From the NCBI RefSeq assembly GCF_009834535.1, contig NC_045696.1:42596001-42660000 (forward strand): a stretch of 64,000 bases of DNA. The letters run 5' to 3'. Below, one piece after another: positions 33,066-40,609 of the stretch; positions within the stretch are counted from its first letter, which is position 1, and each line of letters begins with the position of its first letter. A program made the translations under genes and the position numbers. This DNA comes from Camelus ferus. Lineage: Eukaryota. The notes below the pieces were generated by a model that ran no database searches, was not told the origin of the DNA, and saw only the letters and a list, made by a program, of their open reading frames with translations.

Positions 33066-33188
33066 AAGTTGATTTGAATGATGGTGGGTTAAGAATGCAG
33101 TTAAGCATTTCCAGTTATATCAAATGATTTCAGGAAGTAAAGCTTAAGGGATTTGATTATCAAAGGAGGCTTAATTTTATAGGCTCAC

Positions 33189-33569
33189 CGTGAGCTGGCC
33201 TTGAGATGAGTTAAGGCCGTGGGACCCAAGGCCACCATCAGAGCATGTTTGTAGTATGCAGTAAATAATTGCTCCACGCATGCGTCAATTATATAAGATT
33301 TAGAACAAAGAAAATAGAAGTACGCATGTGCTAGAGATATTCTGTAAGCCTAATGAACAAAGAAACTCACTCTGCGCATGTGCTGACAGAAAACAGATAA
33401 AGGCAGGGCAGGTGAATCATAGGCGTGCACCTCCCTGTGGCAATAAAGCATTGTTAACCCCATGGTGTCTCCGGCTGAAGTCTGTCTGGCGGTATGGCAA
33501 CCCCTTGTGCATTTTTTCGTTTGGGCCGCTCACCTCCTAGAACTCCACGTCAGCCTCCCTTGGCTGACA
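33189..33569 (+). mobile_element. 5' LTR (381 bp)
   Basis: CGTGAGCTGGCC...GGCTGACA (terminal TG mutated to CG); aligns end to end with 39208-39586; TATA-like GATAAAGG near 33396, AATAAA 33442-33447. Confidence 0.96.
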
Positions 33570-33596
33570 CTTTGCACTGTGAGCAGGATGAGGTGA
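33462..33596 (+). CDS. U5/PBS-encoded 44-aa hydrophobic ORF; putative first coding exon (leader/signal peptide) of env
   Basis: ATG 33462 gives MVSPAEVCLAVWQPLVHFFVWAAHLLELHVSLPWLTLCTVSRMR*; the TGA lies inside the donor AG|GTGAGT; the same frame is open in the 3' LTR (ORF from 39479). Below the 60-aa cutoff of the ORF track. Confidence 0.65.
   Translation: MVSPAEVCLAVWQPLVHFFVWAAHLLELHVSLPWLTLCTVSRMR
33572..33589 (+). promoter_or_regulatory. Primer binding site complementary to tRNA-Ser(CGA)
   Basis: TTGCACTGTGAGCAGGAT, 2 nt after the LTR end; 16/18 match to TGGCGCTGTGAGCAGGAT, the complement of the tRNA-Ser(CGA) 3' end as I recall it. Confidence 0.88.
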
Positions 33597-33598
33597 GT
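33591..33598 (+). promoter_or_regulatory. Major splice donor of the provirus (AG|GTGAGT)
   Basis: Consensus 5' splice site immediately after the PBS; exon ends at 33592. Confidence 0.8.
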
Positions 33599-33637
33599 GC
33601 CCCCTCTGAACCCCCTGCCCCTGACAGGGATGCTCTG

Positions 33638-34700
33638 ATGGAAGCAAAGTGGCCCCCTACCTCTGTATGGTACCCGGTGGCCACCTATTTGCTGACGTGG
33701 GCTCAACCTCAGGATTGGGACACAGTGGTGCCCTGGCCAGATGATGTCCGGAGGGCATTGGAGCTGTTAGAAAATAATGTCCCATTAGCCCACCAAGAGG
33801 CAGCCGGGAGGGTGGCCTGGATGTTCTTATCTGTTTTACAGCATGCTAGCCAAGAGATGAGAGATTTACAGATGCAAGTGGAGGAGTTGCAGTGCAGAGA
33901 AGAGGAGCTTAAGCAGAGACCCAGCATGGCAGAAAGGTGTCTGCATGGTCCTAGCTCTGCCACCTCTGAGAGCAGCTATGCCTGTGTAGCTCTGGTCCCA
34001 CTGTCTCTGAGAGCAGTAAGCCTGACCCCTAGCCCCTTTCCACTGCATCTATGGCCCATGGTGAGGCAGCAGGTGGAACTGGAGGAGCCCATGGCTCGGG
34101 GGGAACTCCTGCGGGACCACTGTGAGTGACATACGAGTAAATGGACCAAGTATTTGGACTTAATGCAAGTTGTCTGAGAAATGGATGCACCAGATGATGT
34201 TCGCTTTGCATTTCCATAGTCTAAATGATGAGCTCCTTACAGTTCGAATGAAAGATTTGATTTTGGCTAATGGCCCAATGGGAACATTTGGGAGTATGGC
34301 GGCCCTACTAGTACCATATGTAGACCGCCCCATACATGAAGTAACTGAGGCTCTGGCTCGTCTGGGGGACAGAGAGGTGCGCCGAAAGGGGGTACGTGCT
34401 GCCAAGACTCAAGGTGAGTCCAAGACCCCCTCCTCCTGTGCAGTGACTCAGAAAGGGAAGTCCACACAGAGGAGGAAAAAGGGGAATCCTCCAATTTTAG
34501 GAGGGCCCCAAAAGCTAGATTGCCAGCAGATATGGTGTGATTTACTGGCAGCTGGCCTAAACCGTGTAAAATTACATGGCCAACCTTTGGAGGTGCTGAT
34601 GGCCTTAAGGAAGCAATTATGGCCTGAGCAACAATATTCTCCGTTGCCAACCTCCCAACAGGCCTGAGAGGTGGCCTTTGCTGATTTCCTCCCAGACTAG
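33638..34700 (+). pseudogene. gag: gag (class III / ERV-S type), disrupted
   Basis: MEAKWPPTSVWYPVATYLLTWA...AGRVAWMFL followed by a coiled-coil stretch; C-terminal IWCDLLAAGLNRVKLHGQPLEVLMAL motif typical of ERV-L/S Gag; no CCHC zinc knuckle; stops and a frameshift at about 34127-34180, premature TGA 34665; terminal TAG 34698-34700. Confidence 0.85.
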
Positions 34701-37700
34701 GAGGAAGGCCAAGGTGTTCAGGACGGGGGGCATCCCAGTGACCGGAGGCTACATGTTGAACTGACTATCCACTGGTCCCCCATGAATAAACAGTGAATAC
34801 TGGCACTAGTAGACACAGGAGCTGAAATTACATTGGTGCATGGAAATCTGGAACGTTTTCAGGGGCCATGGGTTGATATAGAAGGATATGGAAACAAGCA
34901 AATGTATGTTAAACAAGAGACTCTGATTTTGGGCATTGGCCATCTGCCCCCATGCTGCAAATGAAGTGCATATATCCCCAATAGCTGAATATATTCTGGG
35001 GATAGACATTTTGCAAGGATTGCAAATACAGATGACTCAAGGGGAGTTTCACCTGAGAGTTCACGTGGTGAAAACAGTTATATGGGGGCATCCTCATCAC
35101 GCACCTTTAATTTTGCCACAGGCCACACGAATGGTGGCTGTCCGGCAATATCGATTGCCCGGAGGCCATGAGGAAATAGGACAGACTATTCTAAAGCTTG
35201 AGGAAGCCAATGTAACTCGGGCTACGCATAGCCCATATAACTCTCCAGTGTGACCAGTGCAGAAGCCATACAGCTCCTGGAGGATGACAGTGGACTATCG
35301 GGAACTGAATAAAGTCACTCCCCTCATGCATGCAGCTGTGATGAATATAACAGATTTGATGGACCGGCTGTCCCATAGACTGGGTACTTGTCACTATGTG
35401 GTTGATCTGTCTAATGCATTCTTCTTGATAGACATAGTCCCTGAGAGCCAAGAACAGTTTGCCTTCACCTGGGAAGTCAGACAATGGACATTTGTTGTGT
35501 TGCCGCAGGGATATCTGCACAGCCCCACACTGTGCCATGGCCTGGTGGCCCAGGACCTGGCTACATGGAGCAAACCGGATACTGTTCATGTGTTCCATTA
35601 TATAGATGACATAATTCTAACTTCTGATTCGCTTTCAGATTTGGAAACCAGTGCCACAGCGCTGCGAGAAGCCCTGGCGGGCGGGTGGTGGACCATGAAC
35701 AAGGACAAAGTGCAAGGACCTGGATATTCTGTCAGATTCTCAGGTGCTGTCTGGTCGGGTAAGACAAAAGTGCTGCCTGGAGCAGTAATAGACACGATCC
35801 AGGCATATTCCCGCCCTGAAACAGTTTAGCAGTTACAGACTTATTTAAGTCCTCTGGGATACTGGCAGGTATTTATTCCTCATTTGGCCCAAATAGCCAA
35901 ACCTCTATGTAAACTGATTAAAAATGGAGAAGTCTGGAATTGGTCTGATGAGACCAAATACGCATTTGTTGAAACTAAGAGGGTGGTGGCCCAAGTGCAA
36001 ACGCTTCACGTTATAGATCCAGACCTTCCTTTCTGGTTGACAGTCCATGTGGACAATGATGGATATGGCTGGGGCTTATGGCAGAAACATGGGCAAAGGA
36101 AAGTGCCCATAGGATTCTGGTCTCAGTTGTGGAAAGGGGCTAAATGTTGTTATTCTCTGATTGAGAAATTGCCAGCAACTTATGCATCCTTGATTGCCAC
36201 TGAACCCCTGACGGGGAAGCAAGAGGTCCAAGTGCAGACCACATGCCCTATTGCAGGGTGGGTACAGACATGGGCAAAGCAACCCCAATCGGGAACTGCC
36301 CAAACCCCAGCTCTGACGAAGTGGGGTGCTTATTTGGAAGAGAGGGCCCAGTACACTGCTAGCCCCTTGGCTGCAGAGTTGCAGCAGGTGTTAGAGCCTG
36401 TGAGATTTGTTGCGCCTGACGTACAGATGCTCCCACAACAAGGGGTGGACCCTATGCCCAGTCCCTTTTGTGAAGGGAAAGGGCCACCCCCGGGAACTGC
36501 TTGGTATACTGATGGATGTTGTAAGGGCAGTCCGCCCACTTGGGTTGCAGTAGCCCTGCACCCTGCCACTGAAGCCTTCTGGTATGAGACCGGAGAAGGC
36601 CAATCCAGCCAATGGGCTTAGTTACGAGCAGTATGGCTGGTGTTGATGAATGAACCTAGTCCCTTGCAGATTTGCACCGATAGTTGGGCCATGCAACGTG
36701 GATACCCCAATGGGCCCTGCAAGACTGGATGATTGGGCACCGGCCCCTATGAGGACAACAGATGTGGAAACAGTTATGGGATAAAGGCCAAGAAGGCCAG
36801 TATACTGTTTACCATGTACCAGGGCACCGCCCAGCCCTGGCACCGGGCAATGATGCTGCTGATGTGCTAGCCCAACTTTGCCCTGTACAGGCCATGGTTC
36901 CAGGACCCAACATAGGTCCTTGGCTCCATAAGAAACTTTGGTCATGTAGGCTCATACACAATGAGGCAGGTAGCCGACTGGTGGGGCCTGCACCTGAGCC
37001 ACAGTGAAGCCAAAGATGCCGTGCGGCAATGTCCATGGTGGGCTAAGCACCACCTGCGCCGGCGGCAATGGCCCCAACAGATGGGGAAGATTGCATGGAG
37101 AATTCAGCCATTGTAGGTATGGCAAATAGGTTACGTAGGCCTCTTTGCACCTAGTACAGGCTTGCGGTACCTGCTGACAGCGGTAGACACCGCTACTGGT
37201 CTAGATTTTGCTCACCATGTGCCCCGAGCTACATAAGACTCTACTATTAGAGCACTGGAAGTTTTATGGGTCTTTTATGGGATACCCTTAAAAATACAAA
37301 GTGATACAGGGGCCCCTTTTACTGCCCAACAGACCTAGGAATGGGCCAAGGAAAATGATATTAACTGGATATTGCATGTGCCTTACCATCCTCAAGCAGC
37401 AGGAATGATTGAACGATACAATGGCCTATTAAAGGACAAACTGAGGGCTCTCAAACCACAGTGTCTTGCCGCAGGTGGTACATCTTTTAAATGAACAACC
37501 TACATACACGGTATGAGCCTACTAGAAAAGTTATTGCAAGGGACTATTCAGAGGCTCAGAGTTGGGCCCATGTAGAATGCCTCCGATGTCTCAACAGTGG
37601 GGCACACGTTAATATTACATGCCCCCAGGATGTTGAACTCGGGAAAACAGGACACCTGGACATGGAAGAATCAGGTCCAGACTGAAGGCCCCTGGCTAAC

Positions 37701-38046
37701 CCTTTTGGAACCATGGGGTGATGGGCTAGAGAAAGCCCTGCAGGTAACCCCATGAGTGGGGGAATGGCCTTTTGATGTGCATGTTACTCTAGGGAACACA
37801 GGAGTGTCCCTACTTAAAGGAGCAGAAGCCCTACGGCTTTGGGCAGTTCCACTGGTAGCTCCTGAAGCTCTCCCAGAGTGTAACCAACCTAGTGATGGCA
37901 GGTTGGTGTGGTACCACCACCCAGGGCAAACAGCCCTTTGTGCGACTGTACTCTCACAGGATGAGAAAGTGGCTTGCATCCTCCCAGAAGGGAGAGATTT
38001 GCCAATCATGATGTCCACCTCTGCTCTGTCCTTCTGTCCAGAGTAA
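34701..38046 (+). pseudogene. pol: pro-pol (protease, RT, RNase H, integrase, dUTPase-like C-terminal domain), disrupted
   Basis: LVDTGA (D at 34812); QYRLPGG, WRMTVDYRELN, LPQGYLHSP, YIDD (35599-35610); WYTDG near 36502; IN QSD (37303) to MIE (37411) with D(35)E spacing, first catalytic D mutated (WQIG); ends TAA 38044-38046. Confidence 0.95.
38011..38041 (+). promoter_or_regulatory. env splice acceptor (branch point, polypyrimidine tract, CAG)
   Basis: ATGTCCACCTCTGCTCTGTCCTTCTGTCCAG|A; AG-free pyrimidine tract, candidate branch A at 38011. Confidence 0.75.
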
Positions 38047-39198
38047 CAGCAAATACCATGTTCTCCTGGGCACACACATTCACGCGAGTCCACAACGTCT
38101 CTCACTGTTGGGTCTATACTGAACTTCCCATAGACGCAGGAGATGGACTGCCATGGCACCTCCACCCCGTGTCCAGAGTTAATTGGAACACCTTGATTCA
38201 ATGGAATGCCGACAGGACAGCAAAATCACCCTGGGACTTGCGGCGGCAGACTATTGAAGAGATACTCCGATGTGAGCGGGGCATTGCCTCCCCCCCAATT
38301 GAAAGAACTGTATGGAATGGGTGGGGATGGATGAATAGTGTTTATGTAAAAATGAGAAATTTAAGCCCTCTCTGTCTTGAGCAGCAGTTTGAACACAAGG
38401 CTCCAAACCGCACAGTGGGGTGGCTCCCAGAAGAACTATGTGCCAAAATTATTTATAATGTAAATGCCTCCACCTGGTGGGATGGACGACCTTTAATTGG
38501 CGTAAACCCCACTGATTTCTTGCCACCAGGGTACCTGTGGGTATGCGGCACCCACGGATGGTGTTATCTCCCAGCTAAATGGACAGGGCGCTGTACTTGG
38601 GGTAGAGCTTACTTGCCCGGACATATCTGGCCCATTTTAACAGAGCGCCCCACAAACTGGGACCCACTGCACACCCGGTGGCACCAGGGAAAGCATGCAG
38701 CTTGATGGTTTTATCCTATGGCCCTGTTCCTGCCTGGTGCTGGGACCATCAGTGTCGAATTACAGGTAGAAGCTTTGGCTCAGCACATATCAGCTATACT
38801 GAATGTTACTAGAAGAGTTATAGAGAAATTGTTAGATGAGACTACCCAGATGCGAAAGGTGGTCTTACAAAATAGAATGGCATTAGATATTCTCACTGCA
38901 AGCCAGGGTGGCACATGTGCTATGCTACATATTGAATGTTGTATCTATATACCAGATCACCAGAAGGAAGTTAACTAAGGCACTGCATGAAATAGATCAG
39001 GAATTGGATTGCATAGATAATGTAACTCAAGACCCCCTTAAAAATTGGTGGTCATCCTTGACGTCCTCCTGGAGATGGAGCCTAGCTGTCCTGGCTATTG
39101 TAGCTGCCTGTGTATTAGTAGGATGCTGTACTCTATATTGTTGTTGTGGTTTTTGGGCACAATGCTCTGCCATGTGGGCTAGGGTCCCCAGGACCTAG
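38042..39198 (+). pseudogene. env: env (gamma-type SU-TM): SU open, TM disrupted
   Basis: SU NTMFSWAH...NVSHCWVYTELP (CWVC-like), LWVCG..GWCYLP.KWTGRC; decayed furin site QGKH; TGA 38703-38705; fusion peptide [33 protein letters not shown] followed by CX6CC (CAMLHIECC); frameshift near 38975; TM helix WSLAVLAIVAACVLVG; stop at 39198. Confidence 0.93.
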
Positions 39199-39207: not shown

Positions 39208-39586
39208 TGTGAGCTGGCCTTGAGATGAGTTAAGGCCATGGGACCCAAGGCCATGATCAGAGCATGTTTGTAGTATGCAGTAAATAATTGCTCCACGCAT
39301 GTGTCAATTATATAAGGTTTAGAACTAGGAAAATAGAAGTACGCATGTGCTAGAGATATTCTGTAAGCCTAATGAACAAAGAAACTCAGACTGCGCATGT
39401 GCTGACAGAAAACAGATAAAAGCGGGACAGGTGCATCATAGGCGCACCTCCCTGTGGCAATAAAGTGTTGCTAACCCCATGGTGTCTCCGGCTGAAGTCT
39501 GTCTGGAGGTATTGCAACTCCTCATGCATTTTTTCGTTTGGGCTGCTCACCTCCTAGAACCCCACGTCAACCTCCCTCGGCTGACA
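39208..39586 (+). mobile_element. 3' LTR (379 bp)
   Basis: TGTGAGCTGGCC...GGCTGACA, preceded by a purine-rich tract and followed by TSD CTCAC; about 26 substitutions plus one 2-nt indel versus the 5' LTR (manual count). Confidence 0.96.
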
Positions 39587-40609
39587 CTCACATTTCTACA
39601 TATGGACAAAGATGATCTCTACAGGCCAAGAATCAGAGCTTGGAAGGGAAGCAGCTTACAGCTCCTTCCTTTCCAATCTTGGAAAAGTAAAGCTTACTTA
39701 CCTTTATTGCAGATAATTGCTCATCGATTGTTGGGCTCCTCCAATGTCTCCATCCAGGTCACAGCTAAGAGATCGAAGACACACAAATAGATAATTCATC
39801 CTTGGGAACATTTGGGAGTTCCAGTGGCCAGGAGAGTTGTTAATTCTAGGATTTCTGAGAGTTTGGAATCTTATGCTTTTTCTCCCCCTCAACTCCAGGT
39901 TTTTTTGACTGTGAATTTGAGGTTCTCATTCTGTTACACTCTTTACAACATATACACTTAAGATGTTTGGTTTTGGATTCAAATCTATGTATTCAGTTCA
40001 GTGCTATCACTACTACATATCTTTAATTCACCTCTGAAATTTATAACTTGCAGCCTTTCTCTTTTTAATTTTTTAAAAAGTTTCTTTCACCCCCAAAATT
40101 AGCTTTCCCAGGTAATACTTCTAAAAATAGTCTCTGATGGGAATTTGGAAGCCTAAGAGATAGCTGTGTCATCCTGTCTTAGAACCATTGGCTGGAGAAC
40201 ATTCACAACTTTGGGGGTCCTCTCAGGTTCTTTGGGCAAAGTTATACATGTCCTACACAAATATTACACATCCTTGCACATCTAAGCAAGATTTCTAAAC
40301 TCAGATGAATAACTTACTAGCTGGATGGGTTAGGAGAGGGTTTTTTGGTTTGTCATTTTTCATCAAGAGAAGACTGAAATCATCAGTCATCTGCTTTTCT
40401 TGAAGACTGCATTGGTCCTGGGCAGGGACAGTCTGGGGAGCTGAGAGGGAAGGATTAGTAGCTAAATTTTCCTACTCAAAGCCCAAACATGACCCTTGGT
40501 TAGCTGGTACAGGGACATTTTCACCCTGCAAAGGGCCTAGGAAGCTACAGCTATTAGATACATAAACATCACTTCTGTGATATCCTGGCCGAACAGACGA
40601 GAACTGGCT

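Follow-up and report, generated by a model that had tools for sequence, protein, structure and literature searches.

The 64,000-nt stretch of Camelus ferus DNA analysed here, referred to as the window (NC_045696.1, positions 42,596,001 to 42,660,000, forward strand), contains one decayed provirus of roughly 6.4 kb, an endogenous retrovirus (ERV) of the ERV-S type bounded by 5-bp target-site duplications. The signal peptide of its envelope gene (env) is probably encoded by a 120-nt mini-exon lying inside the reverse transcriptase (RT) region of pol, and env would be expressed from a three-exon messenger RNA (mRNA); we put the probability of this reading at roughly 0.62. Exon 1 of the predicted mRNA would run through the R and U5 regions of the long terminal repeat (LTR) and the primer binding site (PBS) to a donor at 33592|33593, exon 2 would be the mini-exon (35639-35758), read in a frame other than that of RT, and exon 3 would be the env exon from 38042. 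Most of the signal peptide would come from the 3' half of the mini-exon, with the env-exon residues V-T-A, which precede the N-T-M-F-S-W of the mature surface subunit (SU), completing it. With initiation in exon 1 the leader would be 87 residues long if counted from 33462 and about 45 if counted from 33588. The use of these junctions in RNA, the signal-peptide function and the choice of AUG are what we infer from the anatomy of the provirus, its identity to public gene models, the conservation of the splice sites and the homology between species.

The translation of the three segments 33462-33592, 35639-35758 and 38042-38702 is identical in 304/304 residues to the NCBI model P0009 (XP_032334113.1 / XP_045359804.2). 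The camelid models were found by a protein search with the SU frame and they begin with the U5 peptide, the U5 ATG being their translation start and exon 1 giving the N-terminal 44 residues. The same exon structure was found in the alpaca orthologue (P0002) and at a second locus (P0004/P0005, matching genomic copy L004), and the major donor is used in the models P0002, P0004, P0005 and P0009. The initial annotation of this DNA had proposed that the exon starting at the U5 ATG is spliced directly to env; its donor, its acceptor (38041) and its start are indeed those used in the models, but the mini-exon intervenes and the direct join does not occur in them. No protein with a direct 33592-38042 junction was present among the seven matches of the SU frame or the three matches of the U5 peptide, and when longer proteins were sought with the 44-residue U5 peptide, only the three camelid model clusters already known came up. 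The models XP_032334113.1 / XP_045359804.2, XP_031312205.1 and XP_015097995.1 (Camelus, Vicugna) are named 'endogenous retrovirus group PABLB member 1 Env polyprotein-like', which points to HERV-P(b) and not to ERV-S; they have the same start, donor, mini-exon and acceptor as the window and carry no comment on the LTR, the PBS or the overlap with RT.

The alternative frame at the mini-exon is open only from 35628 to a TAA at 35760, which falls inside the mini-exon donor. Each region of the provirus has at least 30 relatives in the genome (copies labelled L001 and so on), and among the 23 copies compared for the mini-exon the acceptor AG and the donor GT are both kept in all 23, 21 have the 120-nt length and 18 an open frame. 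One and the same CGA-to-TGA change at a CpG dinucleotide accounts for four of the five frame breaks. This CpG (window 35690-35700; copies L061-L080) belongs to a CGA codon in the alternative frame and to AAC-GAG in RT, where the change to TGA is synonymous while it creates a stop in the leader; TGA is found in 4/23 copies and CAA in another 4/23. In most copies the mini-exon peptide ends in S-A-R-T-W-I-F-C-Q-I-L-G-C-C-L-V-G and is joined to the V-T-A|N of the env exon, and the classical features of a signal peptide are present at this junction, namely a charged n-region that ends in S-A-R, a hydrophobic core of 13-14 residues and small residues at positions -3 and -1. The hydrophobicity of its best 14-residue window is equalled in only 2 of 2405 windows taken from all three frames of the provirus interior.

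Relatives were found by a library-wide HMMER search together with a word search, and were compared as proteins by BLASTP and multiple alignment. The mini-exon peptide was found to be homologous to a peptide that stands at the N-terminus, or immediately ahead of SU, in Env proteins from the two-toed sloth (P0016, 426 aa), horse (P0113), donkey (P0115), grey squirrel (P0114) and horseshoe bat (P0112) and in a gene model from the orangutan (P0048). The alignment of P0009 with the sloth protein (E 7e-46) passes from the mini-exon peptide over the junction and on into SU with no gap, residues 7-27 of P0016, which are its N-terminal signal peptide, pairing with residues 67-87 of P0009. The orangutan model is likewise gapless across the junction by BLASTP, and P0113, P0115, P0114 and P0112 are continuous across it in the multiple alignment. 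The peptide starts with M-G in the sloth, horse, bat and squirrel, i.e. with an ATG at the position where camelids have GTG, and intact Env proteins of 409-483 residues from five other species start with a peptide of the mini-exon type. Within the bat-type lineage, an unspliced open reading frame (ORF) derived from Logan (P0014) has SU in common with the spliced model P0112, and the two diverge exactly upstream of V-T-G|N, at the junction seen in camelids.

More distant homologues are the Envs of the syncytin-Car1 and syncytin-Rum1 types, which show about 31-35% identity and the same short SU (N-x-F-L-x-W...CWxC) and which, unlike the window provirus, encode a signal peptide of the classical type within the one ORF. 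This signal peptide stands at the same place before N-x-F-L-x-W in syncytin-Car1 (P0062) and in a sheep relative (P0063), and the position of the mature N-terminus is thereby fixed. The homology places the signal peptide upstream within pol, as a spliced mini-exon inside RT. The initial annotation had itself named a signal peptide upstream within pol as speaking against one in U5, though not in this spliced form.

The env exon depends on upstream sequence for its leader. The env frame is open from 37965 and has no ATG until the Met of N-T-M-F-S-W at 38058, and only three codons of the env exon precede the mature N-terminus. SU itself is short, with N-T-M-F-S-W lying about 20 residues before the CXXC motif. 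Out of 30 env copies fetched, 29 could be anchored (L058 was not), and an in-frame ATG upstream of SU is absent in 27 of the 29, the exceptions L039 and L051 having gained one through private changes. The earlier observation that env has neither an ATG nor a signal peptide of its own before SU is therefore true of the window copy and of 27/29 family copies. The acceptor at 38041 is, as had been proposed, in phase 2 of the env frame and matches the donor at 33592. Splice sites were scored by crude consensus counts (nine positions for donors, 17 pyrimidine positions for acceptors), and by this measure the env acceptor is the best of the provirus: with 14/17 pyrimidines it ties for the richest of 218 YAG sites. 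Its AG is kept in 27/30 copies, and the pol frame stops three bases past it, at TAA 38044-38046.

Two other candidates for an env start were tried and rejected. The ATG(G/A)TG at 38008, considered as a frameshifted start, belongs to the C-terminus of pol, and none of 30 copies has an indel that restores the env frame. A signal peptide continuous with SU, read in the env frame 5' of the acceptor (L-H-P-P-R-R-E-R-F-A-N-H-G-V-H-L-C-S-V-L-P-S) has no ATG and is weakly hydrophobic, which leaves it a very remote prospect; its start codon is TTG or CTG where the distant Logan-derived ORF P0084 has M, and it is rich in L, S and P because a pyrimidine tract gives such residues in any frame.

Since the camelid mini-exon opens the peptide with GTG and not ATG, in-frame AUGs occur in exon 1 alone, at 33462 and 33588. 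Ribosomes in the scanning model meet AUGs in 5'-to-3' order, and with both of these AUGs ahead of the GTG any Env made from this mRNA would have to start at one or the other. Provided that the rest of the reading holds, we consider initiation in exon 1 slightly better than an even chance. The earlier proposal that the LTR and PBS serve as Env coding sequence would accordingly survive in part: the env exon depends on upstream exons and the AUGs are found only in exon 1, but the signal peptide itself is very probably not the U5/PBS peptide, and the LTR stretch may at most supply the start codon.

The frame described in the initial annotation, running from ATG 33462 through U5, the LTR end and the PBS to AG|GTGAGT in phase 2, was seen in the window with 44 codons, and it is open in the 3' LTR too. 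The donor at its end agrees with the consensus at 8/9 positions and is among the three best of 308 GT sites in the provirus. Among 26 informative 5' copies, the donor GT is kept in 25, the U5 ATG in 21 and an ATG-to-donor length of 2 mod 3 in 22, and the frame is also kept in the copies L026 and L030, which are roughly 80% identical. The expected conservation across the family was therefore observed for the ATG and the phase taken singly, but ATG, phase and absence of stops occur together in only 15/26 copies, or 16 if L025 with its two compensating indels is counted. Purifying selection on the U5 frame, which had also been expected, was not detected: the ratio of non-synonymous to synonymous change (dN/dS) in the main group of 17 copies against L026/L030 is 0.91, compared with 0.71 and 0.68 in the other two frames, and differences by codon position amount to 11.3 / 10.3 / 8.9 with no excess at the third position. 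The U5 peptide thus appears to evolve like non-coding sequence, with no protein-level constraint. Two of the three frames are stop-free across U5 and the PBS, and the open U5 frame exceeds chance only weakly.

The start at 33462 is not the first ATG of the predicted transcript, as had been assumed, for three others (33326, 33353 with 15 codons, and 33378) follow the TATA box at 33291. The gag-frame ATG at 33494, which has a strong context, occurs in most of the aligned copies (no count was made). It opens a 211-codon frame joined to gag, and an N-terminally extended Gag is possible; if this were made, two overlapping frames would both be open through U5 and the PBS. The short upstream ORFs of the leader include those at 33326, 33353, 33378 and 33588, and a two-codon ORF (ATG CTC TGA, window 33630-33640) has its stop overlapping the gag ATG (TGATGG).

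Several observations weigh against the mini-exon reading. The peptide starts with V-G (GTG) or A-G in 23/23 camelid copies and never with ATG, an Arg lies within the hydrophobic core in the window copy and its Camelus orthologues, and the mini-exon splice sites are good but not outstanding by the crude consensus count. The agreement across species is not fully independent evidence, as conservation of RT keeps the peptide of the alternative frame alike, and the peptide of the relatives is known from proteins, its position inside RT being seen in camelid DNA only. The junctions rest on automated gene models, which can be propagated between species by protein alignment, and one of them (P0005) also includes a clearly cryptic gag exon. 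A start in exon 1 has against it the dN/dS of 0.91, the two open frames out of three, two or three upstream ORFs and the ATG at 33494, which is out of frame but in a strong context. Every camelid copy is a fossil whose env is broken, the window copy alone having the whole of SU open.

Many of these facts would also be expected under the alternative that survives best, although we regard it as improbable: that there is no evolved strategy in the camelid family, the provirus being a fossil with cryptic host splicing from which the annotation pipeline chose the longest frame, and with a working env start already lost. The env broken in 30/30 copies, the cryptic gag exon of P0005, the lack of a mini-exon ATG in every one of the 23 copies and a peptide similarity that follows automatically from RT conservation all speak for it. 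This explanation would have to treat as coincidence the phase 2 donor, the 120-nt exon, a frame bounded by its splice sites, a hydrophobic core standing flush with a -3/-1 motif and an env exon with no other signal peptide, and it has against it the intact Envs of five other species that begin with the mini-exon-type peptide. Moreover, the breaks in env either vary from copy to copy or are stops that recur at CpG sites, a pattern to be expected had the integrating virus carried an intact env.

A second alternative accepts the mini-exon signal peptide and has translation start at the near-cognate GTG within it, the U5 frame being coincidental. We consider this a little less probable than the preceding explanation. 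The GTG does occupy the position of the ATG in sloth, horse, bat and squirrel, with G at both -3 and +4, and the U5 frame lacks coding constraint in a region where two of three frames are open. However, scanning ribosomes would meet the AUGs 33462, 33494 and 33588 first; the two in the Env frame would yield Env anyway, and the out-of-frame AUG 33494 would divert ribosomes before they reached the GTG.

The least probable of the three, and in our view very unlikely, is the model of the initial annotation, in which 33592 is joined directly to 38042 and the 44 residues from U5, the attachment (att) site and the PBS act as a signal peptide cleaved after V-T-A: the join gives a stop-free frame of 264 codons, no other donor and acceptor in the provirus make so strong a pair, skipping of the mini-exon would preserve the env frame as its length is a multiple of three, and the best 14-residue hydropathy window of the U5 peptide (1.79) is matched by only 4 of 2405 interior windows in three frames and preserved in the divergent L026 and L030, but homology points to the mini-exon and not to U5 as the source of the signal peptide in Envs of this class, relatives with a mini-exon ATG need no U5 coding, the direct-junction protein is missing from the matches described above, the U5 dN/dS is not lower than in the other frames, and the U5 core (residues 7-26) is separated from V-T-A by about 20 residues including E27, R42 and R44, whereas in a classical signal peptide the core lies no more than a few residues from the cleavage site.

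Table 1. Features of the ERV-S-type provirus (positions in the window)
Feature	Position	Strand	Description
Target-site duplication CTCAC	5' copy 33184..33188; 3' copy 39587-39591	+	Read from sequence
5' LTR	33189..33569	+	TATA-like box 33291-33298; AATAAA 33442-33447
U5/PBS open frame	33462..33596	+	ATG, 44 codons MVSPAEVC...SRMR, crosses U5, LTR end and PBS; stop TGA inside donor
Gag-frame ATG	33494..33496	+	Context GGTATGG (strong); frame continuous with gag across U5, PBS and donor
Primer binding site	33572..33589	+	18 nt, tRNA-Ser(CGA) type, 2 bases 3' of LTR end
Second in-frame ATG	33588..33590	+	Last two PBS bases plus G, one codon 5' of donor
Major splice donor GAG|GTGAGT	33590..33598	+	Predicted exon 1 end 33592, phase 2
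gag start and first open stretch	33638..34129	+	ATG 33638, frame 2, 3' of major donor
RT and RNase H remnants of pol	35254..36621	+	Pfam RVT_1 1.4e-19, RT_RNaseH_2 1.2e-10
Mini-exon acceptor	35619..35638	+	Pyrimidine tract then CAG|A; 12/17 pyrimidines
Mini-exon (predicted)	35639..35758	+	120 nt within RT coding region, one base out of RT frame, 40 residues
Mini-exon donor CGG|GTAAGA	35756..35764	+	7/9 consensus positions
env acceptor	38022..38041	+	Pyrimidine tract then CAG|A (38041/38042), phase 2 in env frame
env exon, SU part	38042..38705	+	V-T-A|N-T-M-F-S-W..., stop TGA 38703-38705 at border of SU and transmembrane subunit (TM)
TM remnant	38706..39188	+	Fusion peptide, immunosuppressive domain, CX6CC; interrupted by stops
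3' LTR	39208..39586	+	

The two LTRs of the provirus (Table 1) are 92.9% identical, with 25 mismatches and one gap in 380 positions. The border between R and U5 is likely at the CA of CCCCA|TGG and would thus coincide with the ATG at 33462. In the family alignment the PBS of the window shows two mismatches to the 18-mer of the copies L002 and L003, and the family contains two PBS types of equal length, one of the tRNA-Ser(AGA/TGA) type and one of the tRNA-Ser(CGA) type; 15-mers of both match the 3' ends of tRNA-Ser(AGA), tRNA-Ser(TGA) and tRNA-Ser(CGA) genes called by ARAGORN in the same genome. The presence of both types in one family shows that the primer was switched within it, and a tRNA-Ser PBS marks an element of the ERV-S type. 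By similarity search the closest solved RTs are the foamy virus protease-RT (2.8e-16) and the RT of murine leukaemia virus (MLV) and xenotropic MLV-related virus (2.5e-15), which are practically equal. The TM region matches PF00429 (1.2e-11) as well as the TM of syncytin-1/2 and MLV. A CXXC in SU and an immunosuppressive domain with CX6CC in TM identify env as gamma-type; the CXXC is CWVC in most of 30 copies and CWVY in the window copy. The assignment to the ERV-S lineage made in the initial annotation is thus borne out by both a tRNA-Ser PBS and a gamma-type env.

The Camelus models and the alpaca orthologue agree in the length of the 304-codon frame and in its stop at the SU/TM border. Amino-acid differences between the window locus and alpaca number 5/44 in exon 1, 3/40 in the mini-exon and only 7/220 in SU, and in Camelus and alpaca alike a Tyr replaces the second Cys of CXXC. 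From its sequence the window locus is a possible domesticated SU-only env gene. A 489-residue isoform (P0011) leaves SU at ...D-F-L-P-P-G (window 38500-38760 on), reads the SU/TM border partly in another frame and exits the provirus, and judging from this model transcripts of the locus seem to run into downstream host sequence. Elsewhere in the genome, copy L081 (132-1535; G000:C27:10718831-10720234) holds an intact env-derived ORF of 467 codons with a long N-terminal extension, a hydrophobic stretch, SU and the TM ectodomain, which ends before the membrane anchor and resembles P0079 of another species. This ORF may be a captured env gene.

The combined picture, in which mammalian ERV-S retroviruses make a doubly spliced Env mRNA with an RT-overprinted signal peptide, camelid Env starts at the U5 AUG, the first 44 of 87 leader residues come from the LTR end, att site and PBS, and the locus is possibly domesticated for SU alone and kept open in Camelus as well as Vicugna, is one that we consider less likely than not.

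Members of the ERV-S group (HERV-S, EqERV-S1, ERV-S.1-Dbi of the rhinoceros and XtERV-S of Xenopus) combine, in the covered text of the reports, a tRNA-Ser PBS with an ERV-L/spuma-related class III pol and a class I gamma-type env (bioRxiv 10.1101/2024.03.17.585361, PMC8278194, PMC5682256, bioRxiv 10.1101/2024.10.28.620668). The Env of XtERV-S, as given there, has 441 residues, a comparable size; unlike in the window provirus, the signal peptide described for XtERV-S, 19 residues long, is part of its env ORF, and its donor lies 5' of the PBS. Neither an exon for the signal peptide within RT nor coding in U5 was found described for ERV-S elements in the covered text or in full-text literature searches, the coverage of which does not extend to the supplementary annotation of ERV-S.1-Dbi (10.1101/2024.03.17.585361, Supplementary Figure 10), a source that may bear on the point. 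Within that coverage the impression of the initial annotation that such coding had not been described agrees with the literature, though public gene models already encode the U5 start.

Among known systems, the env mRNA of avian sarcoma/leukosis virus (ASLV) carries the gag AUG and six gag codons spliced to an env exon that lacks an AUG but contains the signal peptide. The window provirus is similar in having AUGs upstream of the major donor (33462 and 33588, their use being predicted) that are in frame with env after splicing. It differs from ASLV in that its gag ATG (33638) is 3' of the donor, the ATG at 33494 is in another frame, and a separate exon would hold the signal peptide.

Doubly spliced mRNAs are known from complex retroviruses, namely tax-rex of human T-cell leukaemia virus (HTLV) and bovine leukaemia virus (BLV), tat-rev of human immunodeficiency virus (HIV), and rec of HERV-K. 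Doubly spliced mRNAs are also covered by a figure legend of PMC9631305. The tax-rex, tat-rev and rec mRNAs resemble the predicted env mRNA in having three exons, the small middle one of which encodes the N-terminus and lies over sequence that codes for something else; unlike it, they encode regulators, and their middle exon lies at the border of pol and env and not in RT.

Long Env leaders are found in HERV-K(HML-2), jaagsiekte sheep retrovirus (JSRV) and foamy viruses. Long leader peptides of retroviral Envs, including one of 98 aa in mouse mammary tumour virus (MMTV), also appear in the covered text of PMC8725593 and PMC2649029. The leaders of MMTV, HERV-K(HML-2), JSRV and foamy viruses are comparable to the predicted 87 residues in being long extensions with the core near the C-terminal end, and unlike them in being contiguous with env. 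By this comparison we rate the RT signal-peptide exon as a new variant of retroviral env expression, which would be nearest to the splice of the ASLV gag AUG to env and to the middle exons of complex retroviruses.

If the reading is true, a group of retroviruses present in at least six mammalian orders hides the signal peptide of its Env in an exon that overlaps RT. Screens and reconstructions of env based on ORFs would then call such genes N-terminally incomplete or give them a wrong start, and intact ERV-S env genes, as in the sloth, horse, squirrel and bat, could be missed as candidates for co-option. It would further mean that overprinting has occurred in a coding region that is among the most conserved of retroviruses, and that an otherwise simple-looking virus uses a three-exon mRNA for a structural gene. 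In camelids, the in-frame AUGs in U5 and at the edge of the PBS provide a testable case of the LTR and the PBS as coding sequence.

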